Assembly: GCA_002633005.1 (NCBI GenBank)
Contig: NMRA01000015.1
Span: 1,533,439 to 1,597,438 of the forward strand
From: Phoronis australis
Lineage: Eukaryota; Animalia; Phoronida
Direction: 5' to 3'
Length of the DNA stretch: 64,000 nucleotides
The notes beneath the pieces are model-generated. The model was not told the origin of the DNA and made no database searches. It was given only the letters and a program-made list of their open reading frames with translations. Position 1 is the stretch's first letter. Every line of letters starts with the position of its first letter. This document shows positions 32,701 to 53,200 of the stretch, in pieces. The position numbers and the translations under genes were made by a program.

Positions 32701-33091
32701 TCTGTTCCCATTCAACTGAAAAAAAAACACTGCTGGGGTTTCCCCAGTTTCAGACAACTTCATTTCCTGTTTGGACACAAGCAATTTTGCCAAGTCGCAT
32801 ATGAGAAGTTGACTGACCCGCATTGCTCCCTAGCTGTACTTTGACGGCAAGCTAATATTTTTCATTGACAAAACTGTCCCATGACTGTGTAGCTGATTCA
32901 TCAGCCTAGCTTTGCTTCGGTGTTCACAGCCAGGTTGTATTCGCTTGGCCTTGTTCTCTCCTTGGAAGTTAGAGATGTACTCGAGTTGTGGATTACCAAA
33001 CAAATCTACCGGCCCGCTATAGCAGGTACAAGGGTGATTAATTGTGTGTGAGACGCATCACAAGATGATAATTACCTGATTGGCGGTTCAT
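2770..33091 (-). CDS. ATP13A3: P5B-type ATPase (ATP13A2/ATP13A3-like polyamine-transporting ATPase), complete multi-exon gene, about 1196 aa
   Basis: Hand-assembled GT-AG exons with consistent phases: 33076-33091, 30902-31164, 29800-29858, 29099-29192, 27895-27974, 26835-26912, 26269-26338, 25512-25646, 24913-24982, 23591-23722, 21641-21802, 21163-21320, 20302-20490, 19538-19599, 18574-18718, [17461-17571 or 16763-16861], 15806-15959, 14455-14575, 13961-14085, 13362-13651, 11519-11641, 9744-9853, 7929-8025, 7205-7277, 6360-6510, 5541-5692, 4712-4800, 3892-3981, 2770-2961 (3591 nt with 16a). Motifs: [28 protein letters not shown] (P5B signature), CFDK|TGTLT phosphorylation site, [41 protein letters not shown]. 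The first exon (MNRQSG) is the least certain. The symbol gives family-level similarity, not proven orthology. Confidence 0.93.
3589..3660 (+). mobile_element. tRNA-derived SINE head (degenerate)
   Basis: A-box-like TAGCTCAGTGG and B-box-like GGTTCAAGCTCC about 40 nt apart; no intact cloverleaf. Confidence 0.45.
6470..6810. repeat. Four degenerate ~90-bp tandem copies spanning the acceptor of ATP13A exon 25
   Basis: Repeated core GTGTGGCCCACTGTAATAGACA..GG.ACTA near 6500, 6590, 6680 and 6770. Confidence 0.7.
6969..7146 (+). mobile_element. 5'-truncated LINE 3' end (I/Nimb-like) with GAA tail and target-site duplication
   Basis: Encodes [29 protein letters not shown], resembling the C-terminal Cys/His region of I-group ORF2; ends in GAAGAAGAA; flanked by ATCTAACATT at 6959-6968 and 7146-7155. 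Confidence 0.6.
8130..9240. repeat. Dispersed repeat with internal degenerate tandem units (Helitron/Helentron-associated type), copy 1
   Basis: Starts AACAAGAGCAACGCGGAGCGTTGA (near-identical start at 63361); recurring CCACTAGGGGG, CGTCATC and CCAAATTTCA motifs shared with 62150-64000. Confidence 0.6.
9827..10014. repeat. Near-perfect 92-bp tandem duplication including the acceptor of ATP13A exon 22
   Basis: GATGCCAGCATGAGCTGTCTTCAGAGCCTGTGG...CAGAATGGATG present twice with a period of 92. Confidence 0.9.
10598..11545. repeat. 30-32-bp minisatellite matching the 3' end and donor of ATP13A exon 21; spans an assembly gap
   Basis: Unit CTTAACCC(AC)AGTCA(T/C)TAGCCCTGT(T/C)CCCACA matches exon end CTTACCCCACAGTCATTAGCCCCGTCCCCACA; N run at 10732-11374. 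Confidence 0.9.
10732..11374. other. Assembly gap (N run)
   Basis: 643 consecutive N; the ORFs called across it are artefacts. Confidence 0.99.
12465..12602. repeat. 39-bp tandem repeat; a further copy lies at ~13218-13248 on the other side of the Penelope-like insert
   Basis: AGGGACTTCATGAAAGTTGGCAATTACGACAAAATGTGC units. Confidence 0.8.
12603..13200. mobile_element. Penelope-like retroelement fragment with internal inversion: RT piece on the minus strand, GIY-YIG C-terminus and 3' end on the plus strand
   Basis: Minus strand 12603-12897 gives [26 protein letters not shown] (PLE RT motifs). Plus strand from 12894 gives [21 protein letters not shown]...SLNRQG (PLE endonuclease tail). Degenerate hammerhead-like core at 13103-13131. 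Confidence 0.8.
14719..14913. mobile_element. Degenerate MITE with CAGTGG(C/T)GGAT-type ends
   Basis: Left end CAATGGCAAATTTAGG, right end CCTAGATCCACCACTG; no convincing TSD. Confidence 0.35.
15258..15467. repeat. 24-bp minisatellite
   Basis: About 8 units of CCCTGTCCAGACAGATGACCA(A/G)GG. Confidence 0.92.
16763..16861 (-). CDS. ATP13A alternative exon 16b (paralogue of 16a), [33 protein letters not shown]
   Basis: Pyrimidine-rich TTTTCTCTCGTAG acceptor, AAG|GTGCAC donor, 99 nt, phase 0-0, no stop; aligns to 16a (LEE...T..FDS.MPT.VRP...DS). Confidence 0.75.
17461..17571 (-). CDS. ATP13A alternative exon 16a (N-domain), [37 protein letters not shown]
   Basis: TAG acceptor, GTGAAG donor, 111 nt, phase 0-0, follows [14 protein letters not shown] in frame. 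Confidence 0.85.
18350..18546. repeat. ~29-bp AT-rich tandem repeat just downstream of the exon-15 donor
   Basis: Units of AAGTTAAGATATCACTAA(A/G)TACAATATCT. Confidence 0.9.
18840..19489. mobile_element. CpG-rich non-autonomous DNA transposon-like fragment
   Basis: CAGGGC...GCCCTG ends, repeated GCGGAAAT subterminal motifs, CpG content well above the flanks; no TSD seen. Confidence 0.4.
22070..22831 (-). mobile_element. Non-autonomous hAT-like DNA transposon with 13-bp TIR, 6-bp TSD and a remnant N-terminal zinc finger
   Basis: TIR CAGAGCTGCCTAC / GTAGGCAGCTCTG; TSD CTAAAC at 22064-22069 and 22832-22837; ORF 22104-22400 ([12 protein letters not shown]...AWCT...DF.I.HG...D..RH..S.KH) resembles a BED-type transposase N-terminus. 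Confidence 0.8.
23229..23578. repeat. ~29-bp minisatellite abutting the donor of ATP13A exon 10
   Basis: About 12 units of CTGTGTCACTAGGAGAGGTGACTA(T/C)CA; explains the overlapping repetitive ORFs at 23096-23828. Confidence 0.95.
24140..24450 (+). mobile_element. tRNA-derived SINE whose A-box segment is amplified as an 18-bp tandem array
   Basis: About 12 copies of CAGTG(C/T)GGTCTAGTGGTA, then B-box GGTTCAAATC at ~24390 and CTTGAG..AGGTA body shared with the SINE at 61203. Confidence 0.7.
27514..27546 (+). ncRNA. Degenerate minimal hammerhead-like motif (probable Penelope pLTR remnant)
   Basis: CTGAAGA-TGACCAC-AGAAATAA-GTGACC-GAAAC: core boxes present, stem II imperfect. Confidence 0.35.
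29943..29951 (-). CDS. Candidate 9-nt microexon (Thr-Thr-Gln) of ATP13A
   Basis: Minus strand reads TTTTACTACAGTAG|ACTACACAG|GTGAGT, phase 0-0, between the exons ending VLLM and starting DYYKQ. Confidence 0.4.
30236..30725. mobile_element. MITE with 15-bp TIR
   Basis: CAGGCCTTTATCCAG versus CTGCATAAAGGCCTG (14 of 15 complementary); no TSD seen. Confidence 0.6.
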
Positions 33092-33099
33092 TGTGGTGT

Positions 33100-34470
33100 G
33101 TAGGCACTTCAAAATACATAACCAACCTAAATTTTATGAGTGACTAAATAAGTGTCAGCTGACAAAGTCTGCCATTTTGTCAAACGTGAATCTGACCTTT
33201 GACCTAGCTCCATCCAGCCTTCAGCATTCTGGTCAAAGTAAAATAATTAAAAGCTTAATCTCCTTACAAACTTGTCTCAGTTGCTGTCCTTTAATTATTA
33301 ATGATTTATTATTCGTCACTAATGCAGCGCCCTTTTTCATTCAAAGATAGACGTGTGAGTTACCATGAACAGGTAGATGAATTCTAAAACTCTGGGGAGA
33401 ATAACTGATAAAAGGAATAGCTGGAATCAGCTCTTGCACAGAAGAAGACGAAAAATTTTCTTCCTCCGAAAGATGACGCTGTTGCGTAAACTTTGATCCT
33501 CGTAACACTTACTGAGTAAGCAAAATTATTCCATCTGTTAAGACAAATGTTGCATTTCTTTCAACTTAAAATGTTTTTCCATAAGTGTGGGTCGCTTATC
33601 TTGCACTTCTGTTGGGTATTCAAATGTCTGTTCTGCTTTGTGCCTGGCTGAACTGGCCGCCTGACTGAGCACTGAGCAATCAAGCCAGTTGGGAAGTGAA
33701 ACTGAACGATGAAGTGCGAGAACTGACAACATGCACGGTGACTCTAGTCTGTATAAACCGGCGAGCACGCGATGGCTTTGTAATGTGGATTTTTTAATTA
33801 AAATCTGGAAATGTTCCTTGCTGGTAATAAATTTCTCAGATTTACTACGAATTGAAAGCAAGTGATATTTTGCTTGGAATTGAACTATTTTAAATATCTT
33901 GTGAATTAGAAGTAGGTCAATTGTAGACTGTGACCACTATCTCTAGTACTAGTAGTAGCAGGCAACACGTAGCCCCTTGGTTGGCCGGTTAGGGGCTACA
34001 ATACTTCCCATCGCTTTCTGTACGAATTTCGTCCTGTGTATGGGGTAGGCCAAATCTGGTCACTGATTGAGAGTTTTCACTTCTTCAAAAATACATTCTA
34101 CACTTAAAACTATGACTTAAAAAGCGCTTACATTCTTCAGTGTTCCTTTCTACTTCTACACATATGTTCGATGAAGTACAGCTACTACAGTCAAGGTAAC
34201 TTTGGCGAAGAATTCCAACTCCACTTTTGGTCATCGTTGACTTTTTCACCACGCAAGCGATAACCACAAAGTATTTCAACTTCAACTGAGTCACGTGAGT
34301 TAGGTAAAGGCTTGCGCGAGAGTGAGCAAAGCGTGTGATGCTGGCCCGCGTGACTTGCAAAATAGCCTGGGAAGGTATCAAGTGAAATTTGTAAGATTGG
34401 TGTCCTTTGGACTTTTTATTCGTCAACATGCGTGATTTCACGTAACTCCCTCAAAATGGCACCCGGTAAA
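33100..34470. promoter_or_regulatory. Putative divergent promoter region between ATP13A and the MKKS locus
   Basis: Head-to-head genes with raised CpG; outward-facing YY1-like AAAATGGC at ~33171-33178 (minus) and 34453-34460 (plus); GTCACGTGAG at ~34290; hairpin GTAGCCCCT/AGGGGCTAC at 33969-33999. Confidence 0.45.
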
Positions 34471-35249
34471 AGAAACTCGAGCAAACCGCGACAGATTTTC
34501 ATCGATTTGTTCAAATTATCTTGATTGAATCGTCTCCAGACTTATTGTATGTGTTAATTATAACTCCATGTGCATATATGCATTTTTCATTTGATTTTAT
34601 TTCCTGTATTTTGAAATTCGTAACTTTTTGTGGGGATGTACTATCGCCCCTGTATGCCTGCGGCATCCAGGGTGATGTAATTGCCTACGTCTAGCTTGCC
34701 AGTAGGGATGGCGGTCACTGTCTAAGTCAAAAAGTGACACTCAATTTCATGGTTCGACAGATTTTTATTTCACTACTTCTTGTAATACATTAAAGCTACA
34801 CGTTGCTGTATATGTGTATCATGCAGCTTTGTACTAAGGCTTCGATGACACAGATCCCATGTATGTTGGAAGATTTTCTTCTAATTACGGTACGACTTGC
34901 CCTGGCTTAACTATCAAAGTCTTGTCACTATATGTAGCTTTTTTGAGCATAGAGGGACTCGTATAAATACCGTACTTTGGCAATCCGGATTTCTTTATAA
35001 TGGGTTCCTTCCTTCATCAATGAAATTGTTGAGGTAGCCATTGTTCAATAAAGATAGTTTAATTTTGGATTTGGTGGCAATTCTAAAATACTGGACATAT
35101 CGGCAATTGAAGTACCACAAATTTCTTGATGAAGGTTAACATGTACACTACAATGAGAAATTTGCTGCACATTAGGCTTTTTTAGCATTGTATTCCTACA
35201 ATTTGCCCCATTGTCACTAACACTGTTTTGACCAATTTTCTTTGCAGAT

Positions 35250-35492
35250 ATGGACAAGTTGACCAGCTTTGCTAAACGCAATATTGTCGCTTTAGTGTGT
35301 GTCCCTTCAATCATTGCTATTCACTACTACTGGTATAAAATTCAATACAACCCTGTACTCGTTCCTGAAAAACAACGCAAGCTACGTATCTTTGGCTACA
35401 GTGTTCAAAAGGATACCATCGGTGAATTTGAAGGGCGTTGGGGAAAACTTGTTGATACAGTTGAAAAAGATAAAAAGCCGGATAAAAGTTAG
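35250..35492 (+). CDS. Small single-TM protein, uMKKS1-like (MKKS upstream microprotein 1), 80 aa
   Basis: ATG two nt after a strong acceptor (TTTTCTTTGCAG, ends 35247). Sequence IVALVCVPSIIAIHYYWYKIQYNPVL matches my recollection of human uMKKS1 (VLVVMVPLVGLIHLGWYRIKSSPVF). Same position upstream of MKKS. Confidence 0.8.
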   Translation: MDKLTSFAKRNIVALVCVPSIIAIHYYWYKIQYNPVLVPEKQRKLRIFGYSVQKDTIGEFEGRWGKLVDTVEKDKKPDKS

Positions 35493-35540
35493 AATCTGAT
35501 TTGGTGTAGGACGTATAAATAAACTATATTGTTTGCAAAG

Positions 35541-35714
35541 ATGTCGTTTTGGATGAACACCTCCAATTTTGTGAGTCGCAACAAGTTAGTGTCATTTGCA
35601 ATCATCTTTGGTGCTATCTACTTTGGTTCCTATCCCTTCAAGTCAACTGAAATTTCTCTGGGGAAGGACAGGGCTGAGGAAATGAAGAAAACAAAGCAGG
35701 TATTGGCTTCATAG
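35541..35714 (+). CDS. Small single-TM protein, uMKKS2-like (MKKS upstream microprotein 2), 57 aa
   Basis: Start context CAAAGATG (second ATG at 35553). MNTSNFVSRNKLVSFAIIFGAIYFGSY matches my recollection of human uMKKS2 (MKNTSWIRKNWLLVAGISFIGVHLGTY). Same order as in human. Confidence 0.72.
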   Translation: MSFWMNTSNFVSRNKLVSFAIIFGAIYFGSYPFKSTEISLGKDRAEEMKKTKQVLAS

Positions 35715-36070
35715 AATTGTGTATCTCTTTGGCAAACACGTTGCTGTTATAGAGAAGGCAAATTGAAGACGTCTAGGGCTTTTTGTCCACCTTGTGGCAA
35801 CTTTATTTTTTTTGTTAATTTAGCATTTGAAAAACTTGAAAACGTATCCAAAGATTTGGACATTATTTTGTTTTGCTTTAGGGCGGTTTATGGAACGTTA
35901 TGCCAACAATGTTTACCATTTCTGACAGTGAGTAACAGCACTTACTGGCAGTTAGTCCATTATTCAGTAAAGAATGAAATAGCTTGTAATTTGGTGTTTG
36001 TGATATACCAATGCTTTGTGGTGCTGTTGTAATGAACTGAATTTGTTTTAAATATTTCCTGGAACAAATT

Positions 36071-36076
36071 AATAAA
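36071..36076 (+). terminator. Candidate proximal poly(A) signal for a microprotein-only mRNA (a second AATAAA at 35518-35523)
   Basis: AATAAA followed by GT/T-rich sequence, upstream of the MKKS acceptor at 36137-36138. Confidence 0.45.
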
Positions 36077-36149
36077 ATGCATTCAAAGTCAACGCAAATG
36101 TCTTAATTGTTGCTTCAGTATCCAGTGTTTAATTTCAGAAATAGTGAAA

Positions 36150-39100
36150 ATGAATGACGAGAGGTCACCTTACCGGATCCAACCAAAACAGCCTTCTAAG
36201 TCCTTTCACCTGTCGACCAGTAACCTTCAGTTATGTTCCACATTGAAATGCTTCCTGCGACTCGTGCGATCTTCATATGGTCCTTATGGGATGTTAAAAA
36301 CATTGCAGAACTCAAGCGGTGGTCACGTGACAGTCACCAGTACATCCAGCAGATTGTTTCCTTTACTAACAGTTTCACATCCAGTGTTGAAGATAGTTAA
36401 TGCTGCCCTCTCTGGGCATATACAGACATACTCTGATGGGGGCTTATTTGCTGCGTTACTGTGCACTGAACTTGTTATTTCATCGTTGGACATGCAGTTG
36501 AATCGACGCTTACTTATTGATGTTTATGAATATTTACTTTCTGTATGTGTGAACTATTTGAACACTGATAAGTGTGGTTGTCTATTAAACATTGATTTCT
36601 CAAAGCTGGACATTCTTCTCAGCGTAACTCGGAGTGTGATTCAAACAAAGGTTGGCTGCTTCTTGTCTGACTCCAACTTGCAGCACATTACTCAGTTAGT
36701 TGTCGAAGTGTTTCTGCAAACTCTGACTGATGACCAGACACCCCATGTGCAGTACTTGTGTGTGGAAGGATGTAACCCTCAGTCTAGTCGAACACTGCAG
36801 GGGGTGCTGTTTCAACAGCTATTGAGACAGGATATTGGTTCTGTGAAGTGGATGGTGCTTCCCTCTGGTGAACGATATATCAAGACTGCTTTGTTCAATG
36901 TGTCATTGTCTGGGGACTCTGAGGAACTCATTGATGTCCAATATGAATTGCACAATATGGATGAGAATATGGATGATGTAGTGGTAGATAATATTGTTGA
37001 GATTATGAAGCTCCTTGTGAATGAAGGTGTTGGGCTTGTCATGTGTCAAAAGGTCATTCATCCCAGAGTGAGGCAGTATCTTCAGGGTCAAAAGGTCATC
37101 GTCATTGATAGGCTTGGAAGTTTGTACACCAGTGACCTTCAACGTCTGACTGGTTAGTGAATTTGTTTGCTTTAGTCAAAATTGTGGCAAATGTGCTGAA
37201 TTTATGGAGAAAAATAATGCTAGACAATGCCTCTCACACTTGTGACATTGATTTTGGATTATTGATGTATCTGCATATGTATGGTATGTAATTTGAAAGT
37301 TCTTGTGTGAGTCCTTTAATGTAATACTATTCAACTTAGGAAAACATGATTTGATGCACCAATGGTAATGGAATTTATGAATCTTGCCTCAAAATTCACT
37401 GACAGTGTGTGCAGAATGTTGTTTTCAGTTGGCATCTACATTGGCTTGATAATTTCAATGAAATGTGCAAGTTTTACAGACTTTTACAAATGCTCGTTTC
37501 TAAAATTGTGTCTGCAAAATGGCCCCTATGTTCATGTTTCTATTACAATTGACATCAGCAATCTTGTTACAGGTGGTCAATGCCTCGGCTCCATCAGTTC
37601 AGTGTCCTCCATGACTGACCTAGGAATGCTTACTGGTCTGAACTATGTAGATATTGGACGGAAGATGTACCTTCATCTCCAGAACCACCATAGCCCTGTA
37701 CACACAGTCGTACTATGTAATAGACATGAGGAGTGCTTGCAAGAAATGAAGGTGTGTTGATGGTGTGAGGGTCCTTTGTAGTGAATGGATAGGGATTAGC
37801 TTGAGGGGTCAAATAGAACTTGGCCCCTGAGATGATGGCAAGTGATAAGAACAAAATACTGATGCCAAAAGAGCAAAATGCTGATGCTAAGAATAGCTGA
37901 ACAAAGTGACTGGCAGTAATGTTCACTTGAGCTGGTGACAGTAAAATCTCAACAGTTTTGGATCAAATTAAGGCTTAAATTGCCCTTTTTTGTTTTTCAA
38001 GGGCTTCTAACATTGTGAACCATCAATGGCCACAATTTTCACATTTTCTGTTGATAGCTATGATCATGTGTCTAAGTGTACTGTATTGTAAATTGATGAG
38101 ATTTTATCGTAACCTTTCCCATGGGAAATACCCCCATGGGGTGCATTTGAAAGCTGTGCATACTTGAGAATTTTGTTAATGACAGTCTTTAGTGCCACAA
38201 TGTCAGTGTTAAGTTTATGTAGGCCCTTATGACTAGCGTGCGTGCATCTGGCCGAATACCTTCAAAACTACAGATTTTAACTCAATAAAAGTAATATTTC
38301 TTACTTTCTGAAAATAGATGGCTTTTAGAATTTTGATTTTTTTAACTTAGCATCTGACATTAGTTGAATCCCATAATTTAGGTCTTTTATTGAAATTTAG
38401 CAAAAAAGGAAGGCCTATTCATAGCAAAACAACAGTTATCAATTTCATTGTTTGATATGTTTTCACATTTAAATCTTAAAAATATTGTTAGTTCTCGAAG
38501 TTATCACTTCTGAAAGTCTCTCCCGCAAAAGTGAAACTTTTTAAAATCAATTCCAAACAGTGTTTTGTTGAACAGTGTATAAAGCATGCGACAGTGATTT
38601 CTGAGATTTGATGTTCAGAAGGTAGTAAAATTTGAAATTTTTCTAGGTTCCTACATAACCTTAACTTTTTCTTCACCAGGTGGCAGCAAAGTCTGCACTG
38701 CTCACTCTGCGACTGTTACTGACCAGACCAGCTGTCTTGCATGGTGGAGGCTGTTGGCAAACACATCTAGCTTCATATATCAGACAATGGGTAGGTACAG
38801 GATTTTGACACTTTCTTTGCAGCAAATATAATATAGTCATTCTACTGGATCATTACAGTTAACTGTTGTTAAGGTCAACCCACTGGAACAAGCAAGTTAT
38901 GAATGAAGATTTAAGGATTGGTATTTTGGAGTATGTTTAATTCCCATTTATCTAAGCACTTCTCTTGTGTTGGTGTGGGATATTCAGGGAGGTTGTGCAA
39001 AAATGTTGTGAAGCATTTAAAAATGAAAGAAGTTGTTTATCAACTATTTTCCAATGAAATTTATTGAGAAGTCACATTGGTGCTGTCATTTCACTAGAGT

Positions 39101-40036
39101 TCTGTGACACATCTGTTAGTACGGTGTATGTGGGCAAGCTTTTAGAACACAGAGTGGAGTCTCATAGGTTACTTCTCTGCATAGCCAAACGTATTTTACT
39201 CCACACTGTAAACCAAATGAACTGTTGACCACTGGGAAATTAATTCTAGGTTCACGCGAGTGGAGAATGCTAACAGTTTCTCTGGCTAAAATGCTGGCAT
39301 TTTTGCCAAACAGATGAGCTGACCGTGAACGGGTCATTTCCTGACCACCCAAATTGCTGTTAAAGGAAAACTGATGTCAGAACGTGTTCACTATGCGCTG
39401 TAACTTGGTAGATGTGACGATAAGCATAGGCCTTTTACTTCTTCACGTGTTTCCTTTGATTACGTGGTTTAGCTCCAAAAAGGGAAAGCGAAATTGCACG
39501 TGACTGGCATTTTTGCTACTAGCAAAAGTGCTTGCGAAAAAGCTACCAATTTAACCAGTTTGTGAATAGGTGATACGATGTGGTTGTATTGTAAACTTGT
39601 CTTCATGGCATTTTTAATTCTTGATTTTGGGCAGGTCTCTCAGAACACCAAAGACATCATTCTGGATCTACAGTGCTCTGAATTTCAGCTAATGACAGCT
39701 GCCAACAACTTCGTACACTCCATAGAGAAAGTTGCCATGGCAACATGTGTAGCTAATGATGATGTTCACCAGATTGACAACCTACACTGGCATCACTGGA
39801 CTGACACTAGCGCTACCTGTTGTTGTGGATATGTAACTAGACATAATCAGATGACATTCAAATGTATCTCTTTAGCTGCCAGACACACAGTTGAAGGAAG
39901 TCAAGATGGTAATCCTCATATGATAAAAAATTTGATTGTGGATAGCTTACCTGTCAGATTAAATGGACTTCAGGTTGGTGTGAATGCAGCAAATGTTGTC
40001 TTGGGTATTGCTAATGTAATTGTTTCAAAAGATTAA
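36150..40036 (+). CDS. MKKS: McKusick-Kaufman/Bardet-Biedl syndrome chaperonin-like protein (MKKS/BBS6), 564 aa, 4 coding exons
   Basis: Exons 36150-37152, 37573-37751, 38680-38790, 39635-40036 with compatible phases. Motifs: SSYGPYGMLK, GGHVTVTSTSSRL, HPVLKI, YSDGGLFA (degenerate GDGTT), LVMCQKVIHP, VIDRLG, GGGCWQTHLASYIR, IVDSL. Confidence 0.93.
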
Positions 40037-40159
40037 TGGTCAGCATAGTAAAGTCCAGTTTGTCCCCCCTCTGGGCACAAAATTTGTGGTGAAAGAGTCA
40101 CTTGTTTTTTTAATTTATATTGATAAACAGTGTATGCGGCGTATAGTGTGGGATTTTAA

Positions 40160-40195
40160 AATAAAGTTGGATTAAATGTAACATTTTATTTTATT
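40160..40195. terminator. Facing poly(A) signals of the convergent MKKS (+) and PLOD (-) genes
   Basis: AATAAA at 40160-40165 on plus; TTTATT twice at 40185-40195 (AATAAA on minus). Confidence 0.5.
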
Positions 40196-41143
40196 TAACT
40201 GGTACAAAAATTAGACTAGAAAGATGTAAAAATGTTAATAAGGATTTAGCTTCACAATACACAGACAAGAATTTTATACAAAAGATCTCTACCAAAGTAA
40301 TATGTAATGGGTTAGTTTAAAGTGCTTCTGACTAGGATTGTTGTAAACACATCTGTTACATTATAGGTGGACAACAACAGATTCATAACATTTAAGCACC
40401 AGTATACCAATACAAAATGCAAGAAGAGACTAACAAACTATAAATTGACACTAAGCTACACTATCATAGTTATTAATAGCACCAATATCTTATCACAACT
40501 GTGATACCAACACAGACAAATGTATCCTTGATTAACATATCTTTCAAAAGACAAGGGAAGTATTTGGATAGCAATGATTGTCTCTACTCTAACAACTCCA
40601 TGTAAAATTCTCATAAAGTAACAATACAAAATAATATCTGGCCAAAATAATATTAATGCGTTACAAATTAACTGACCAAAGTTGTGTTCACATGGGTAAG
40701 TTGACCGAGAGTAAGATTTCTCAGAATGATGCAGAGCAACTGATGATGTAGACAGAAATTAAAATGTCTAATTACAAGTTAACATCTATGAGTCAACTTA
40801 CAGAAATAAACCTTTTGAAGGCAGCACAAAAGTATGCTTTATCAGTATAGGCTGGCACAAGGGCACAGGTGTTCCCAAGGACGAAAAGAATATCCGCTAG
40901 TACGCGCTTGCGCAGCTCAAATCTTATGGGAACTTTTCACCCATGGGACTTTTTTTTATCATTTCCACTTCGACACTTAATACCATGTGGACACAGCAAA
41001 GTGAAGAATAACTGGGAGTAACCATGTTACAAGGGGTTAGGTAATAACAGTTGAACAGGGAAGTATAGTGTGAAGATTTTTTAATGTTTTTGGAGATTCA
41101 AAAACTGAGTACTACTAGCAAACTACTGATGAGTATTGGCATG

Positions 41144-41299: not shown

Positions 41300-44200
41300 C
41301 TAAAACGAACAAGACTGACACAGTGAAGCTGAGTGATACTACGGATCAATGAATGAGACCATGATATAGCGCGTGCCAGCAGTAGTAGTGAGCCCCTCGT
41401 GGTAGTGGGTCAGACGGCCAGGGTGAATAAATGCCCAGCCTTCCTTAGTCAAGATCACCGAGCAGTTAGATCGTATGAATCTCGCGCCACCACCCTGCAA
41501 TAGAGCAAAGAGTGAGGTAGGTTGGTGGCTGAGATTAAAGTTGACATGCACAAACTCATGTACACAAACACACTCACCTCTACTGGCCTTTTTAGAGACC
41601 TGATTTTCCTCTGTTACTCATTCTTACTAATATTAAACCACAAGTCACACATCAAAAAATGCATGAAGTTGTTACAAGAAGCGTTTCAGCTGGTAAACTA
41701 TCCATGCAACCACCTGACAGGCAGTGATTTAACCATAGATAGAGTAACTTGATTTACGCAGTTGCAAACGAAAAGAAGCATCATAGCAACACAAGCTTAA
41801 GCAATGGTCTCCGTCACTGGATTACGATCGGAAGAAATTCTTTAGATCAATGTCATATTGAGCAAACATCAAAGTTCTCTAAAGAATTTAAACTCCCGCA
41901 ACAGCACAAAATTACTGAAATCTTCTGTTTCAAGATTCCAATTTTGCATTATGAACACATTTAGCCCCTTTTGCTCCAAGGTTTTACTTAAAATGTTCTG
42001 TATACAGCCACTTAGAAGAGGAGCAGAGTAGCACACAGGCATATGGGACTAAATGTGAACATAAACAGTAATAACAGCTCATCCACAACTTGCATGCGAT
42101 GAAACCCTTTCCTGCATCAACATAATGCTGCTGTATACAGCACATGCTTACTTTAGCACCAAATTAATGGTGAACGTACCTCATGGTCCAAGTCCAGTCG
42201 GATTCAGCGCCACTTCAACGGAGAAAGCCAACTTTTCAGAGTTACTGCCACCCAAAAATGCAATTCACCGATTATCTTACACACACTACTAACTTTAATC
42301 ACTGTGTCCGTGACTTATTAAGTATGCGAGCAGTGAAGTGGTGCAGTTGGTATAAAAGTCTTGTTTCAGGTTTCGGCAGTCCATTTCACCAAGCAAACTG
42401 AATGACCGATATGAGATTATCACAGTCTGAATAACAACCATCTGCATTAGCTCAGTGAAAAGGAATGCAAAACCAGGACACACCAACTAGGTCACTTCAC
42501 TTCATGTTCTATGCATAGTTAATAATGTTTAGGAACACAGTAATTTATGTTAAATGTATGAAGACAGTCAGTTATTTGTATTTTATTAGAAATAATAGCA
42601 GAAATGTTGGCTTTCCCAATGAACATTACCCAGAACAAGACAAAAGTATTCAGACAAAATGACCCATAATTCCCGTCGTAACGACTGGGCAGAAGCCGAA
42701 TTCATTGTCAGGGTAGTCTCCCCTGATGTCCGAGAATAAAGGGGATTTAACAGGAAAGTTAGTATAAAGGTGGCTATGCATTTCTGTGATTAGAATTTTG
42801 TCCCCTAATAGGTATTACTTTTCATTTTCGCTCTTCATAAAATTTGGCCGTCATTACAGGGAAACATTGTTTTGTCTGATTACTTATGTCTTGTAGTGTC
42901 CGTACCTCATAGTCCACTCCAACCTGGTTCAGTGCTACATTGATAGTGTACGTGGAAGAGTCGTGATGGGGCCGTAATGATGCCTGCTCATCAGGTCGGT
43001 AACGCACTACAAAGTTCATGATGGCTCTTGGAGGCTGTAATGACAGCGAATCAATCTCGACATCAACAGGAAAACACGGAACAGGGTCTGACATAAAAAC
43101 CAAACAACATCAGAACTGCATGTAGTAGAGAATACAAATATAACGATTGGTTCTGGTCACCACCACCAGGTGGTGCTGGGTAAAAAAAGATTTCCACCAA
43201 TTTCAGCAGCCAACAGGCGATTTCTTTTTGTTGAAAATAAGGGCTACAAAAAATACATCACTGCAGCATCAATTAAAAGACATTTAGTTTTCAGAAAATT
43301 CAAAAAACAGACCAGAATGAATTATACTATTCTCTTTGTCCTAAAAAGGAAAGCACACTTTCTGTGGTGCCCTAACAAGATGAAATGCGTGTAACACTTC
43401 AAAAATTGAAAACTACCAAAAACAACAGAATCTCCAGTCTATCTAGAATTCAAAAGCTTCCAAGAGTTCACTCAGTGCAAATTACAGCTCAATTTGTTCA
43501 GAAATGCTACCAGTATCGTGCCGAAAAACAAACAAGCATATGCAATCAAACATGACCACGCCCACAAAATGTTTGGCATAAAAATGATTTTAGCAATACC
43601 ACATTTCGACTTGTTTCCATTTCACTGGATTCTGAGTTTGAATAGCAAAAATTATTTTGGCCTGCTAACTAATGATCATTAAAAAAGAAATAGTTGACAT
43701 GTGAAAAGCTACAACACAAAACCAGGAAATAACCAAGACTTGTATTCCGCAGTGCATTGCATCTAGTACTCACATCACTGTAATAGCCAAGGAAGACCTT
43801 CTGTTGCATAGGTTGTACCCACTGTTGCAGTACATAAAGCCACTCCTGTTCATAGTTGATCTGATTCATGTGGATATCTCTAGTAGGTACGTTCTCATAC
43901 CCTCCTGCCAGCCGAGTGTCCTGTGGTACAATAGGAAAAGAATCCTAAAAATTCAAATTCTCCTACCATCTGCATAAAGACACTCTTTGATACACGCATA
44001 TCACGAACATACTCCATTGATATCATGAATGTACTCTCTTAAGTAATCCAATTTACAATAATAATAGCAACTGTGATATGGCAATATGAGATGGACATTT
44101 TTAGTAACTACATTTTCATTCTTGTCAAACATACAATATGGATGAATGTAACTCAACACAAGTACAGCAATGAAAATTTTTTTCTCAAATGGCTGTGTTC

Positions 44201-47200
44201 TCAATGCTCTACACGGGATACCCAAAATGAAATCAGCACCCTCATATTTACACTGAACTCCAGTAAACCAGTGTGTTACCTGATTAGAACCTCCAGACCA
44301 CTCTCCAAAGTGCTCCATCTCTTCTCTCAAGTGTTTTGTATACTTCAGACTCATGATGGGGAACCAGTAGACATCAGGACAAGGCTATGAACAGTAATAA
44401 CGGTAATAATAAACACAATAATAATAATAAAGTTTATTTAAGTCATTTTCAATAATCACCAAGCAGAAATCACCAAGCAGAAATCACCAAGCAGGTCATA
44501 GCAATTAATCGCATATCTGTCATAATCTCAACTGACACCAAGAAGAAAAAAGATATCAACAACAAAGCTGTGGTCTTATCAATATTGCCATTGTCACGGA
44601 GATTTTGTAAATATTGATTTAAGTCATAAATGTACTTGGCAAGACAACGATGATAGACAGGTTCACTACGTCCAAATTTTGACATTTGTTGGAATTTTTG
44701 GGGGAAAGTGGAAACTACTCATTTTTGGAAAACTCATGGAATGAAGAATCAGAAAATAATTGATTCAATTTTTGGAGGCCATCTTGGATTTTCAAAACTG
44801 GTGCTGCTAAAATAGATTTTGCCCAATATATCCGCCCTTGGGTCAGTGAGAATGTTACTTGTTTTAATGGCTGCACCCACATTTTGTGGGGTATGGAATT
44901 GAAAAACACTATTTCTAAAATGATACATATAACCTAAATGATTTTTAATAGCAGCTATGAACCCCCATAATATTTAAAGGAATTACAGAAACGCAGATTA
45001 ACATTTATTTACAGTATATAATCTTTTTGAAAAGACATTTGAGACATATGTTTTGAAGATTTCGATATTATTTCCACTGTTCACTTTGGAATCCAGCCCT
45101 CCTCTACTCAATGGAAATGCATTTAGTCGGATGGCAGATAATTTTGGCAGTAACCAGGCTGAGGATTAATGATAGGAGTTGTAGCCTGCTGTGCAAATCG
45201 ACCAGAAACATGCTATCAGCCACTCTGAATTCACCCTAACACCAAGAGCAATCTTTGCTGCCAGAGGGGCAATGCTGCCATGCACAGACAAGTCGAATCG
45301 AATCCACCTTTTGCAGAAACTTTCTGAAACAGACGTCTTAGAACAAGACAGTCCTCAAGCTGCAAGAGAGGTTTTAAATCCAGACAACATATAAACAACA
45401 TCCACTGAGTTTGTTCACCCAAGCCACAAAACTGCATGTATGGATAGTATGGAAGTGATGTTCTTAACTAGAGATTATGAAAATATCATTCTGGTTGTTG
45501 ACACCCACAAAGACAACTCTTTGAAACCACCCACAAGAGAAAAAGAGGCAGAGAAAAGGTCGAGTACGGTACCCGATAAAAGACGAGACTTACATACAGA
45601 ACATCCCATGACCAAAAAAGGCTCAACGTACTGAATATCTGTCTGCAAAGACATTTGAATAATTATAGTAAAGACTCTGTCAAGATAGCCATTACTTCAG
45701 CTTCAGGATGCACAAAGCACAACCGACGTGATCTACGTTTAGAAGAAAACAATCACGAAGAAGCAGATACATTGCTAATACATCATGCAGTCCTGGCATC
45801 ACATCAAAATGTCGGATTCTCAGCTGATGTTTTTTCATCTGACATAGATGTACTGCTCGTCATTGACTATTATGACAGGCTTCTCAGAAATACTTCAGTC
45901 ACCAGGCAATCTGGGATTGTGGATGTGAATCCAATATGGTCAACATTAGGTGCTTTCAAGGCAAAGGCTCTTCCGGCTTTCCATGCTTTTACAAGGACAG
46001 ACAACATTGGTCCATTCTATAGATTGAATATATATTTGAAGGCAAACACTGATGATATCAATGCTCTGCAAACTTTTTGTACTGCTTATGAAGTAACGGG
46101 TGAACCTCTTTTCACGTTAGCTCCTTTTACATGTGCATACTCACCACAGGGCATACACACAAATAGCATCCCAGAGCTGAGGTGGTACCTCTTCTGTAAA
46201 CATGCCTGACAGTGACACACGTCTACCAACCATTGGTACTTTCAAACAGCAGGTGCTGAGGGTGTTTATTCAAGCCAGAGTGTGGGGCCAGGCAGTCATT
46301 GCTCGACAGGAATTCCTTGACCCATTACAGAATGAATTTACAAGGACAAAGAGACTAGCTGAAACCCTCAATACTGAGGAGCTTCCGGCGCCAGAGGCTA
46401 TCATTGAGATAAATAGATGCTAGTGCAAAAACTATTGCTCTTCCCAAAGACGCTCTTACCAATCAAAGGACCTACCTTACAAAGATCTATGTCAGTATAA
46501 TGCAGAATGTAAGAATGGTGATGATGATGTGATTCCTGCTGACAGTGATGGCTATAGTAGTGATCTATAGACTGATTTGAAACAGGTGACAGTGATGGCT
46601 ATAGTAGTGATCTATAGACTGATTTCAAAGTTTTGAAAGACTATTGACACTACAAAAAACATACTTTCATGTTCTGCAAACGTAAATAAGTTGTTGTTGA
46701 AGGAAACAAGCTATGAACAAAATATACAAGAAAGTAAGATTGTGATCAAATGTGTTGGATTACATGAAGAATGCATTTAGAAAATGTGGCTGCTAATAAA
46801 TGGGGTTTTGAATATGTTTCTCATTTAACAAGTTGCATTTTCAGATTTCTTGACCACAAAAATGTGAGTGCTGCCATTAAAACTAACATTCTAAGTGACA
46901 AAAGAGCAAAGATACTGTCAGAGGAAAATGTATTTTACCAGCCCATTTTTAAAAATCCAAAATGGCTGCCAAGATGGCCATCAATAAAATAAAATTTCCA
47001 AGTCTTGACCAGAGGAATGCAGGTGTAGCCATAAAAACCAATATTCTAAGTGAACCAAATGCAGACTGAAATATTGTTCAAAATCCATTTTACCATCGCC
47101 ATTTTTGAATATCCAAGACGGCTGCCAAAAAAATTGAATCAATTATTTTCTGATTTGTCATTCCACGAGGTTTCCAAAAATGTACAGTTTCCACTTTTCC

Positions 47201-50200
47201 CAAAAAAATCCAACAAACCTGACTATAACAGCAGGATCACATAGACAAACAAATTCACTCGCATGATGATGTCATAATGAGGTATCACAGGTGCAGTAGC
47301 CATAACAACCCTACACAGCAGTGGTCGTAATATCAACCCCTTAAAACAGTAGTCAACAATTCAACACTTTAATGAGAACATCATGAAAATCCCCAACGTG
47401 ACGTGAACCAAATCAATCATGGAGTATTCATTAGTATTTGGCATACTTAAAAGGTGATTATTGGCAACAACATTGTGTATTTAAGATCAGTCCCAAGACG
47501 AGACATGCTCCCAAAGCCTCAGCAGCTCAAGCCCAATATGGCAAGTAGCCAAGTACATTAAGCATGTTCAACTGATAAGGTCACCGGTCTCAATCTCAGT
47601 CAAATCTACTGAATGTCTGTCTACAAGCCATCGGAATTGGTGAAAACTACAAAAACAGAGAATTTTGCCATTCTTTCACTCTAGTTAAAAGCGAATAATA
47701 GTCTATCAAACATAACATTAATCCCCAAAATGCATTCTTTAGCCATAAAACCAATTGTTTCCCTTTTACACCATTGTCATGTCATCATGACCCATCAACT
47801 CAAGCCAGTGTTGTGGGGTAACTCCATTACCTGAGGCACCTCGGTCTCCTCGTTCAAGTAGTGCTGATACTCAGCATGGATGTACTTCTTCTCCCAGTCC
47901 TAAAATAATAACAAGAACAATAAGACATCACTGCTCATTGTTATCATTCATTACATTGCAGAGCAATTTATAATGACAGTAACACACAACAGTAACACAC
48001 GACAGTAAAACAGTGAGCAATGAAACACAAAAAGAGCATGACAAAGGTAAAAGGAACATCCGTTTCAGCAAACTTTAAAATAGGCTGAGGTCATCTGAAA
48101 TAAACAGTAGTTTGCAAAAAAGACACAATTTTACAGCACGTGCTCAATTGTAACTAAGTTACTAAGTAAACACTGGACATTCATTTAAAGTGGACATCAT
48201 CAACATTGCACAATGAGGTTGATGATACGAGAGTGTATTAATATTTGGACACTTACATGACAATTGTACAAATGAAAGTGAGCTGCAGAGCTGGAGACCT
48301 AACTCCTGGGTCCAGCAGTGGGTTAGAAAGGGAATCAAACTTACCCACAAACCTACCCATACTGGGAGACTGCTACTACTAGGTAGCCCTGCATTCACAA
48401 TCAGACAAACATTTAAATAGGTAAATGGGTACAAAAAGCCATGTATTTATGACTGAATAGAGTCAACTGAACTGAACTGAACTGAACTGAAAAGAGTACT
48501 TAGGCCAGACATCATGGTGTTATCTATCAACTGAAGCCACTCACTATCAGCTTGTAACATAACTCAGCATTTAGTCATGAAACCACTCTATTCCCACTTC
48601 AAACATATTGCTTTTTGCACATAAAAGAAGACTTATAAATTTCAACTATTTACATTGAGTTCCGTTTTAATAGCAATTTCCCAGTTTTCCCCAAACTCAA
48701 TCACATCAAACTACAATAACTGCAAGCTGACATCAGTTACAGTCAGTCTAACCCAGAAGCGTCTTCAGACATATTACTTACGTATCTGTTGTTCCAAATT
48801 TCCCACATGTCAGCATGTAAGTGATCATACAGCTTATAGGTGTCGCTGTTTATTAAGTAACCAAAGTCGAATTCATTCCACACATGCATGAAAACGCCCT
48901 AAAATGAACGAGTGATAATTTCCATAAGCGTGTTTGATGACAGATTGGTACAAAAAATTCCTAGTCTAGAAATTGGAAAAATTAGTTGTGCTTTCTGAAA
49001 GATCAATAAATTATAAATTCAAAATTTTAGTATTAAATAATTGTTTTACAAAATAACAACAGATCACGAAAGAAGCAAAAATTTTGTTCCAGTATTTCAA
49101 AGCACATTTTCTTTTCCATGTTTAAGCTTAATAGAAGGAAACTGAAAAAATGTCTACAAATACGATGTTGTTTTTTTAGCTAAATTAGCAGCATAAGGTT
49201 GAGAATGACTGCTGATAACATATTGTATTTACACACATAAAATGATGTACAATCAAAACATAGGACATTGCACATGTGTAAATACATTATGATATCAGCA
49301 ATCAGTGTCAGTTTTCTAATGTCAATTAATATTGCACTAGAACACTTGACATGCTACACGACCTCAATCATAAATAGTCCACATTTGAATACAGGAGATG
49401 CACCACATTTAGATGTTAAGGCATAAATACACCCCTATATTGTGGCTAATTATGACCCTACAAATACTCACCAGTTCTCTTAGACGTTCACAGACTGCCA
49501 TGTCAGCATCAAGATTTGAAATATATCGACTGATAAAGGCACCTTGGAGTTGTTCTACCACAGGGCCGTGAATAAGGTAAGCACCAGACACATAGGGGAC
49601 ATTCCACAGACCCCTGTAGAAATAGAAGGGAAATTTATTTTGTGAACAAACCTCCAGTCCCTATTACGATCACACGATACATCATAGAGAGAATAGGAAA
49701 TCTGATCCTAAATTTCTTTCTTTAAATTTGAGAATTCATTTCAGCGTTTCTCAACATAACTTAAATATTTAGACATATTCTGCCAGTATTCAAATCGTGG
49801 GTCAGTGAAAAATTTCTATGTATATTCAACATGACGATGTAATGCGATTTGGCCATAAATTAGCATAGATCCAAGTAGAGTATACAATGCTCAGGTAATT
49901 CGATTCAACTAGTCATGACTGTCAGAGAACGCAGTGTCTCATTTTACAAATTTGTCATAAAAACCGATAAATAAATAAAAACACCGGTGCCGACATAACG
50001 GTTCAAAACACTGTAACCAATCGGATGAACTAAGTTTCATTTCACATCTTTACATTTACAGCACTTTAATATAAAGTCCTTAAGTACATTAACAGTTTCA
50101 TTAACAGAATTCAACTCACAGCTTCTTCCCTTGTGCAATGTCCATGTAATCATCTGACCTGGCATAGTAACCCTTTGGAGTGAGAGCACCCCAGAAGTTG

Positions 50201-53200
50201 GACCATAGTAGCTTCGGTCGCCGCACCATTGGTGCGATCACAGATCTGAAGATCCAAATGGTAACACGATGAGTGACTGCAGTACTAACACAAATGTTCA
50301 TTGTATTCATTCCGNATATTGTGGCTAATTATGACCCTACAAATACTCACCAGTTCTCTTAGACGTTCACAGACTGCCATGTCAGCATCAAGATTTGAAA
50401 TATATCGACTGATAAAGGCACCTTGGAGTTGTTCTACCACAGGGCCGTGAATAAGGTACACACCAGACACATAGGGGACATTCCACAGACCCCTGTAGAA
50501 ATAGAAGGGAAATTTATTTTGTGAACAAACCTCCAGTCCCTATTACGATCACACGATACATCATAGAGAGAATAGGAAATCTGATCCTAAATTTCTTTCT
50601 TTAAATTTGAGAATTCATTTCAGCGTTTCTCAACATAACTTAAATATTTAGACATATTCTGCCAGTATTCAAATCGTGGGTCAGTGAAAAACTCACAGCT
50701 TCTTCCCTTGTGCAATGTCCATGTAATCATCTGACCTGGCATAGTAACCCTTTGGAGTGAGAGCACCCCAGAAGTTGGACCATAGTAGCTTCGGTCGCCG
50801 CACCATTGGGGCGATCACAGATCTGAAGATCCAAATGGTAACACGATGAGTGACTGCAGTACTAACACAAATGTTTATTGTATTCATTCCGGTCAACACC
50901 TACGTTTGACTAAGTGTCCAACTCTAATTTTCAAAATTTTCACCAGTGCCCCGTTGAACACCCACCAGTTAATTTATATACTTGAGTCACTTTGAGCTCC
51001 TTGAGACACCATATCTTTGTGATCGCTGGCCTCAACTCAGAATCACCATATTACCAGCATTTTGTTGAACTCTCACCCTAGAAGTGGCTCACAGAAATGT
51101 AACTCCCTGACTGTTTACCTGATCTACCAACTGAGGCGAACACCCACCCTCACTTTGCTTAAGCTTCACATTTAAATGCTTATGCTCAGCTACATGTCAA
51201 CACATCGATTTTTAAGCACCTGGGGTTTAAACTAGACGAATACAGACAGGGGTGCATTCGCTAGATAAAAGACTATTGTGAAAAAGTAGGAAAACATAAA
51301 ATCGGGCAGGTGAAACGCGGGTATTTTGCAAGTCTCCTAGGGACTTTGCCAGAGAACACCAGCAAAATGGCAGCAACTGAAGAGATTGGTCAGCAAGGCT
51401 GAACTGTTCATCTATAGGATAGAGCTCACAGCTTCCATTCCAGAAGCGAGGGTTTCTTGCCGCGAGTGCCTTGCTAGAGACTTACATTACAGGAATACAA
51501 GTCTGCATGGTCATAGGCTTACTCAAGTGCGTTTATTTAAATGTAGAGCATGCGTGTTATTTGTTACCTGTTTTGCTGTATAAGGAGAGCCAGAGTCTCC
51601 TGTAATTCCAGCTGGACATCAGAGTCAACAGAGAAGTAGTATTTACAGCTGACTTTCAGACATTCATCTCTACAAGTACAACAGAAGAGTCATAGCACGG
51701 TTTAACCCATGTTTAAAGTGTAATGATTTAGATTATTGCTAGGTATTATTACTTTAAATTTATTAATTCCTATCACATTGTTTTGACCTCCCCTCTGTAT
51801 GGTTGCCATGATGTCTGAATTCAATCAATCAGCCAATGATAACAGAAAGCTGCTGTCCAGCACAAGGGCGCCCTTGAGACAAGTACAATACATGTCACTG
51901 GCTCTACAAGTAGAATAGATGCTTCACCTTGAGTTGCTCATTCCTTCTTGCATTTCAAATAGCGCCATGGCAACTCTTCATCAACACAACTGTATTTTCT
52001 GGGATATGAAAAGCTTCACTGTACAGAGAACAGGAGCAGGTGTCTGTGAAGCTACCTTGAGAAAATACAGTAGTTTTTAATGAAGATAGCGTTAATGAAG
52101 GGCTGCTACTGAACTACCTAAAATGTGAGAAGGAATGAGAGACTTAGATAATGTTATGTGAACACAAAATGGACATAACTGCCTACTGGTAGTAGCTGAT
52201 CAGTACATGTATCATTAGACTATGGGAGAGCCAACAAATGCTGACTTTGTGCAGAGGTGACTTGATGTCCAATGGCACTACAATATCGATCTCTAATTTC
52301 GGATAAAAATAATCACAAAAAATTTCCATTTTTTTAGTTTTCAAAACCTTCTTAAATTGTAGTGAGAGCCCACAATCCTTCAAAATAATGTCCGAAGCCA
52401 TGAAACAGAATTTGAAAATGGCAAACCTTGAGTTTGTGCTATTTCTTTATTTTTTAAAATGGGAAAAAGAAATATTCCTCGTCCACCACAATGGTCAGAC
52501 TACACCATACTTCAAGATTGTGATGACCCCATGCCAAAACTTCAAACCACTTACATTCCCTTGTTCCTTGCATTCCACTCATTCAACTCTCCTGGACCCG
52601 ACGTCATAACTGACTTGTAACTGTCACCGTAACTAGACACAAACTCGTCCACCTCCTGGCTGTGACCTTTCTCCTGTGGCAGACAAATTCATAACCTTCC
52701 CAGAAGATTGCATGTCAACAAAACATGGAATCAATACAGAGTACGAGGCAGGTGATTTAACTGGTCTAAAAGATGGCTTGACCTGACATGTGCATGCTAC
52801 AGCGCGAGTTTCATGCCATTCCGACCAAGCAAAATGTCACCCGTGAAAAGCGGGGGTTTTTCGAATAAACTCGGGATCTTACTGACATGGACTAGCAAAA
52901 TGGCCACCACCGAACTGAAAAGTTGGCTAAGCTGTGATGCTGAATTATGGGAAAAACGTATGCGTAAACATGTTGTTTCCACTCTATAAGTAAAGATTTG
53001 TCACCGCAAAGTTGCGTCACTGAATGCAGAATTGGCCATTCTTATTTTAGCATTCACCTAGCACCCAATCCCTAAGGGTCATTCAATAAACAAACAACAA
53101 TGCCAATAAACATTCTCGCCTACTTTTCATGAAACCTTTATTACAGCTATTACAACATAATTTCACATTTCAGTCAGAAAAGCAGAATGGACCAAAACTA

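Follow-up and report, generated by a model that had tools for sequence, protein, structure and literature searches.

A probable invertebrate counterpart of the human uMKKS1-uMKKS2-MKKS message in the phoronid Phoronis australis

Introduction

The leader of the human MKKS message contains two upstream open reading frames (uORFs), uMKKS1 of 63 amino acids (aa; Q9HB66, LOC128706665, also micro-MKKS63) and uMKKS2 of 50 aa (V9GZ13). LOC128706665 has been described as an MKKS leader protein and uMKKS1 has been linked to complex IV by prediction (bioRxiv 2024.10.01.615885), and the peptides of both uORFs are reported to be mitochondrial (PMC7066179). The 63-aa product is reported to dominate over MKKS, to be mitochondrial, to be required for respiration in microglia and to be reduced in the cortex in Alzheimer's disease (PMC13577902). 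MKKS reporters are repressed by the uORFs (PMC11837024, PMC7530721). Here, a stretch of 64,000 bp from the phoronid Phoronis australis (contig NMRA01000015.1, positions 1,533,439 to 1,597,438; the whole of it referred to as the window) is described, in which two small open reading frames (ORFs), ORF1 and ORF2, lie upstream of MKKS on the same strand. This unit is probably the equivalent, in an invertebrate, of the human message and likely gives rise to three proteins by leaky scanning.

Results

Transcript structure

ORF1, ORF2 and MKKS are carried on one shared spliced RNA. The RNA data comprised three raw runs (about 18-19% of each, with 151-base reads) and one contig set, four in all, and gave an exon chain in which exon 1 ends at 33515 and is followed by exon 2 (35248-35699), exon 3 (36139-37152) and three further MKKS exons; all exon-mapped reads imply plus-strand RNA. 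The splice between exons 2 and 3 (35699 to 36139, GT..AG) is crossed by 28, 18 and 25 reads in the three runs (19, 12 and 20 distinct start places) and by one contig, against a depth of 33, 22 and 31 at the start of exon 3. Exons 2 and 3 have similar depths, and depth within intron 2 is zero from 35736 to 36043 in all four sets. The junction of exons 1 and 2 (33515 to 35248, GT..AG) was found in 5, 7 and 6 reads and in one contig with 40 bases on the exon 1 side. The linkage of ORF1 to MKKS is based on a shared exon with unbroken depth, on the junction reads and on one 1,447-base contig. The main features are as follows.

35248..35699, plus strand: exon 2, with ORF1 and 53 codons of ORF2 (continuous RNA depth of 15-45 in three runs; AG and GT bounds at the junctions)
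35250..35492, plus strand: ORF1, 80 aa, predicted uMKKS1-like membrane microprotein with a single pass (A at -3 and G at +4 around the start codon)
35541..35699, plus strand: codons 1-53 of ORF2, a 54-aa uMKKS2-like predicted membrane microprotein (A at -3 and T at +4 around the start codon)
35700..36138, plus strand: intron 2, 439 bases, one codon ahead of the ORF2 stop (junction reads, empty depth)
36139..36144, plus strand: last codon (Lys) and TAG stop of ORF2 (stop at 36142-36144, TGA next, MKKS ATG 5 bases after the stop)
36150..37152, plus strand: MKKS/BBS6 coding part of exon 3 (Pfam Cpn60_TCP1, expectation value (E) 8e-35; junction reads)
37573..37751, plus strand: MKKS coding exon (junction reads, frame check)
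38680..38790, plus strand: MKKS coding exon (junction reads, frame check)
39635..40036, plus strand: last MKKS coding exon (RNA junction and frame check)

An earlier reading of the window, made from its letters alone (the sequence-only reading), had proposed two intact small ORFs of 80 and 57 aa, both in one exon upstream of MKKS on its strand, as part of a possibly polycistronic unit. The junction reads support a shared RNA, and the frames, their order and the 80 aa of ORF1, which lies wholly in exon 2, also hold. ORF2 had to be revised to 54 aa because a splice donor falls inside it: the mature frame consists of 53 codons, a Lys codon and a stop, the latter two lying across intron 2 within the MKKS exon. 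The 57-aa version (35541-35714) is the unspliced reading and is ruled out by the RNA reads.

The MKKS gene

The large downstream gene is, by its sequence, MKKS, a divergent group II chaperonin. Its four read-supported exons form one open frame of 564 aa, which is 33% identical to Branchiostoma MKKS over its length (E 3e-101). All 82 of the 82 matches in a database search carry Cpn60_TCP1, and the named ones are mostly MKKS, with best identities of 39-40%. In a tree of MKKS sequences, from which L007, L011 and L014-L016 (loci introduced below) were left out and which had no BBS10, BBS12 or CCT outgroup, the window sequence falls outside the vertebrate group and in no starred set.

ORF1 as a likely counterpart of uMKKS1

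Of the long upstream frames on the MKKS mRNA, ORF1 comes first (junction reads, leader scan). Its hydrophobic stretch covers residues 12-28 (mean hydropathy 1.85) and that of ORF2 residues 16-32 (1.58), with a net charge of +2 on the N-terminus before each, in agreement with the basic N-terminus and single hydrophobic segment that had been described for both. In the AlphaFold2 model of ORF1, residues 12-32 form a helix (mean predicted local distance difference test score 81, predicted template modelling score 0.44).

A HMMER search of 1.84 billion proteins with ORF1 gave 48 matches, of which 45 are short proteins of one family (E down to 1e-11) and three, long repetitive proteins, were set aside. 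The motif P-x5-H-x2-W is retained in 44 of the 45 short members; in the alignment (48 rows) W28 is invariant and P19, H25, Q32 and V38 are each kept in at least 90%. Conservation is concentrated on the membrane helix and the positions that immediately follow, with a C-terminal tail that varies freely. Of the alleles listed from the RNA reads, none lies in ORF1 codons 1-55, six of eight in the ORF1 tail change the residue, and both of those in ORF2 are silent. Six of the 20 family members looked up have a named source, namely Lamellibrachia, Culicoides, Pandinus, Allacma, Anopheles and Cloeon, all as unnamed or hypothetical proteins, and these span an annelid, a scorpion, a springtail and insects (including mosquito and midge).

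The uMKKS1 and uMKKS2 motifs given in the sequence-only reading agree with the human peptides in a supplement of PMC7066179. The uMKKS1-type motif occurs in one of 5,436 six-frame pieces, which is ORF1 itself, and residues 13-36 of ORF1 are identical to human uMKKS1 at 11 of 24 positions without gaps (counted by hand; human peptide from the same supplement). In the ESM Atlas, ORF1 comes closest to a chordate cluster of 63 aa titled 'uncharacterized LOC128706665 homolog' (score 0.93, with 190 features in common), and two arthropod clusters come next at 0.92. Because of the Atlas match, the 11 identities and the HMMER family, it is supported at sequence level that ORF1 is the uMKKS1 counterpart and a conserved gene of a wide animal family.

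Other searches with ORF1 gave little: a word-indexed protein search found nothing, Pfam has no family for it (with three single weak matches among its 48 relatives), a PDB sequence search returned only butyrophilin at E 1.4 or worse, and Foldseek returned no match for the model. A predicted complex of ORF1 and ORF2 scored 0.01, which is uninformative either way, and the two show no detectable relation to each other (hhalign probability 1%, E 0.053).

ORF2 as a probable counterpart of uMKKS2

ORF2 is the second frame, directly before the MKKS start. Its relative in another locus (L001, below; E 4e-8) is a frame of 51 aa that also lies upstream of MKKS; given this relative, a chance origin is refuted for ORF2 as far as sequence comparison goes. 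By hand and without gaps, ORF2 shares 6 of 18 residues with human uMKKS2, and the L001 frame 7 of 22 (PMC7066179 supplement). The spacing [WF]-x2-[KR]-N-x14-G-[TS]-Y of the human peptide was found in two of the 5,436 pieces, ORF2 and its L001 relative, with a pattern that was picked after the sequences had been seen. Leave-one-out profiles recovered the ORF2 of the window (E 5e-5) and the frames of L001 and L006 (2e-3 each). Word-indexed protein, Pfam and PDB sequence searches with ORF2 found nothing. The earlier statement that ORF2 follows uMKKS2 holds for the N-x14-G-[TS]-Y spacing and the position, and less so for overall identity and for the Atlas, which lends it no support. ORF2 is quite probably orthologous to uMKKS2, and this link, based on a short by-hand match and on position, is weaker than that of ORF1 to uMKKS1.

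The unit in other animals

A scan of metagenomes with an MKKS alignment yielded 16 MKKS-like loci (L001-L016), an earlier scan with a single MKKS protein having yielded none among 49 candidates. A relative of ORF1 lies upstream on the same strand in six of the 16 (L001, L004, L006 and L007-L009), and in L001, L004 and L006 an ORF1-like frame, an ORF2-like frame and MKKS follow in the same order. With a profile of 43 proteins independent of the loci, ORF1 of the window and the six linked ORFs rank at the top of the 5,436 pieces (E 3e-26 to 3e-3, the next being 0.12). In L006 the two small frames and an MKKS frame of 580 aa follow one another with no introns, as expected of a spliced three-frame mRNA. 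The ORF1 tail of L001 is at a contig edge, and its first 32 codons are the same as those that end P0109, a member of the ORF1 family. L005 has the second membrane frame and no room on its contig for ORF1, and six loci (L002, L003, L010, L011, L013 and L016) have less than 1 kb upstream and are uninformative on both ORFs. L007-L009 are three near-identical insect-like loci, and the closest match to their ORF1 is a mayfly protein. The best ORF1 match (P0086) and the best MKKS match (P0001) are both on Joint Genome Institute contigs of 6,954 bases, which hints, circumstantially, at one more linked case.

By splice-site prediction, L001, L004 and L005 likewise have an intron where ORF2 ends, and the predicted ORF2 stop lies within the MKKS exon in L004 (17 bases before the ATG) and L005 (3 bases), but not in L001. 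In L002 (690-704) and L003 (825-840), whose upstream exons are off the contigs, a TGA follows closely on the acceptor predicted for the MKKS exon, at the place where the stop of an upstream frame would fall. The insect-like ORF1, about 3.1-3.6 kb upstream of MKKS in L007-L009, probably has an intron that interrupts it about 51 codons in, and its last exon was not located; a direct splice of this ORF1 to the MKKS exon would give an in-frame fusion.

These loci support the proposal that the unit and its linkage with MKKS are older than vertebrates, and the three-frame message is probably far older than them. The further suggestion of a pan-bilaterian unit fits in that other animals share the layout, and is too strong as a universal statement, given the loci in which one or both ORFs were not found.

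Start codons and proposed translation

The start context of ORF1 is strong and those of ORF2 and MKKS are moderate. From the ORF1 start to the MKKS ATG there is no out-of-frame ATG, and four ATGs occur where 9.7 would be expected. Because of the graded contexts and the lack of out-of-frame ATGs, leaky scanning with graded output is suggested, by which one spliced RNA would likely give three separate proteins. Judged from the contexts, most ribosomes would initiate at ORF1, fewer at ORF2 and fewest at MKKS, where ribosomes that restart once past the ORF2 stop, 5 bases before the ATG, perhaps aid initiation. Each of the two peptides would insert in mitochondrial membranes by one helix, with ORF1 probably a respiratory-chain (complex IV) assembly helper, and both would meanwhile keep MKKS output low; the mitochondrial location and the repression of MKKS are carried over by analogy from the human work, and the start contexts would be compatible with the repression.

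A wider reading, possible and so far rather doubtful, is that the uMKKS1-uMKKS2-MKKS message was present in the last common bilaterian ancestor (or earlier, if the lineage of L005 and L006 is non-bilaterian), that uMKKS1 is an ancient complex IV assembly microprotein and the main product, and that MKKS is a low-dose passenger, translated when ribosomes re-initiate at the stop of uMKKS2, which in several lineages lies within the MKKS exon.

Other features of the leader

Three further features belong to the leader.

33473..33496, plus strand: possible seven-codon uORF (sequence and leader scan; in the mRNA only if transcription begins upstream of 33473)
33476..33515, plus strand: 3' part of leader exon 1 (junction 33515-35248; loose read ends match the stretch; 5' end unmapped)
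35518..35523, plus strand: AATAAA hexamer between ORF1 and ORF2 (sequence match; putative usage)

The stop of the seven-codon uORF is TGA in the window and TAA in the read consensus, and is thus retained. At 33511-33515 some reads in two of the three raw runs have nine different letters before the junction of exons 1 and 2, which probably reflect an allele with an insertion where exon 1 ends. Dispersed-repeat sequence occupies 33855-34940 of intron 1, where reads are deep, from both strands and with many differences and loose ends. In the sampled part of the three runs, no short transcript with the uORFs only was seen, despite AATAAA at 35518 and at 36071, and no poly(A) loose read ends were listed in the region.

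Neighbouring genes

A multi-exon P5-type ATPase gene (ATP13A-like) on the minus strand at 7800-33500 is arranged head to head with MKKS and its two small frames. Its exon at 30884-31198 matches Pfam P5-ATPase (E 3e-13), and minus-strand RNA of low depth at 33042-33312 suggests a two-way promoter of a few hundred bases shared by this gene and the MKKS unit. Inside this gene are a 643-base N gap with flanking tandem repeats (10732-11374) and, in an intron, a minus-strand stop-free stretch (12595-12903) without a match in a Pfam scan, which by eye, from a motif, resembles a fragment of a retroelement reverse transcriptase. A procollagen lysyl hydroxylase (PLOD) gene on the minus strand at 41300-57300 (Pfam GT_PLOD E 2e-12) converges on MKKS, and minus-strand RNA from its side extends down to about 40088-40358, near or overlapping the MKKS 3' end. 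Near-identical duplicated blocks at 49437-50891 (376 bases at 99.5% and 202 bases at 99%) lie around a single N at 50315 and repeat two PLOD exons, probably as an assembly artefact.

Discussion

Several points weigh against the unit as a counterpart of the human message translated by leaky scanning. The link of ORF1 to the human peptide consists of an embedding match and a by-hand comparison, not of a tool alignment score against a vertebrate sequence, and no vertebrate-named protein was among the 20 family members looked up. Counts of the RNA-read alleles listed are small. No single read, at 151 bases, covers ORF1 through MKKS. The strong start context of ORF1 leaves little leak, the scarcity of ATGs within ORF1 alone has a P of about 0.06, and out-of-frame ATGs do occur in the leaders of L004 and L006; the six inside ORF1 of these two loci all have a pyrimidine at -3, with stronger ones inside their ORF2. 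Translation of ORF1 and ORF2 is itself inferred, indirectly, from conservation and the allele pattern. Among the loci, three of the 16, with at least 5 kb upstream (L012, L014 and L015; 5.0-5.9 kb), show neither ORF, and ORF2 was not found in L007-L009, where introns are too alike to reveal exons. An Atlas search with ORF2 gave nothing above 0.86, and in leave-one-out profiles the ORF2-like frames of L004 (E 0.24) and L005 (E 0.3) each came behind one unrelated piece.

The ORF2 results could also mean that ORF1 is the uMKKS1 orthologue and ORF2 is not uMKKS2, the second slot being taken by unrelated small membrane frames in each lineage. The low Atlas score and the lack of an ORF2 in the insect-like loci would fit this, as would the fact that the few identities to human uMKKS2 fall inside the hydrophobic stretch and that only the L001 frame, and not those of L004, L005 and L006, matches the ORF2 of the window singly. 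However, the human spacing is kept ungapped in two pieces only, both of them ORF2 frames; the ORF2-like frames have the same rank and size, three of them are recovered by leave-one-out profiles, and the predicted intron at their end recurs in three loci, so that this alternative is unlikely.

It is still less probable that the peptides act mainly in cis, their sequence slowing ribosomes and repressing MKKS, with a mitochondrial role that is secondary or vertebrate-specific. The human MKKS uORF does repress a reporter in a partly sequence-dependent manner (PMC7530721), and an MKKS reporter gives more output when the uORF starts are mutated (Akimoto 2013, as summarised in PMC11837024), but the human knock-out lowers respiration (PMC13577902). 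In addition, a role of ORF1 as a membrane protein acting in trans is favoured because its conservation lies on the helix and just beyond, and not on the tail. The ORF1 family has members in mosquito and midge, a group not known to have BBS6.

Equally improbable is a shared promoter with MKKS translated from another isoform, in which exon 2 is skipped or a start lies inside intron 2, so that the unit would not be functionally polycistronic. By textbook rules, a strong start followed by 80 codons makes downstream starts inefficient, and a trace depth of about 1 is present at 36088-36131 in one of the four RNA sets. However, a junction of exon 1 to exon 3 is absent among the joints listed (15 of 18), and the reads joining exons 2 and 3 come near to the depth at which exon 3 begins. 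That both small frames are chance ORFs of a 5' leader, as empty word-indexed searches and the lack of a Pfam family might suggest, can be dismissed in view of the 45-member ORF1 family and the linked relatives in other animals, and is already refuted for ORF1.

The human system is known. The three-frame MKKS message of the window, which is real, conserved and transcribed, adds a phylogenetically distant new member to it. In the mostly open literature searched, no description of uMKKS1, uMKKS2 or the three-frame layout outside vertebrates was found, with the reservation that the taxon range in PMC7530721, available in part, might already include invertebrates. The published range is given as 'conserved across mammals' (PMC11837024), and uMKKS1 is called mammalian in reviews. 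If shown in invertebrates with the MKKS link, the message would be among the oldest known multi-protein mRNAs in animals, and if the ancestral bilaterian reading is true, mitochondrial and cilium biogenesis would have been coupled on one mRNA for more than 550 million years. P19, H25, W28, Q32 and V38 are flagged as important residues, and insects and other invertebrates are offered as models. MKKS knock-outs, knock-downs and leader variants may affect up to three proteins, two of whose frames are missed by annotation.

Comparison with known systems

The human MKKS locus is like that of P. australis in having two small single-helix frames in the same order ahead of MKKS on the mRNA, with matching core motifs, and differs in the length of the peptides (63 and 50 aa, compared with 80 and 54 aa here). 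In the human layout uMKKS1 has its own exon and uMKKS2 lies in the MKKS exon, whereas in P. australis ORF1 shares an exon with most of ORF2, the stop of which lies beyond an intron and 5 bases ahead of the ATG of MKKS. Alternative polyadenylation has been reported for human MKKS (PMC11837024), while a transcript with the uORFs only was not seen in the RNA sampled here. The bicistronic sloth1/sloth2 mRNA of Drosophila (SMIM4/C12orf73; PMC9681215) is similar in its mitochondrial membrane micropeptides, old linkage, leaky scanning and 5 bases from stop to ATG, of which the location and the scanning are by inference here. However, Sloth1 and Sloth2 are paralogues that serve complex III, and in jawed vertebrates they are no longer linked (PMC9681215), whereas ORF1 and ORF2 show no detectable relation to each other and have a large chaperonin downstream. 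The tricistronic cytokine mRNA of the silkworm belongs to an insect cytokine system with unrelated proteins, but it is similar in that three proteins are made from one animal mRNA by context-dependent scanning (PMC2978622), as is proposed here for ORF1, ORF2 and MKKS.

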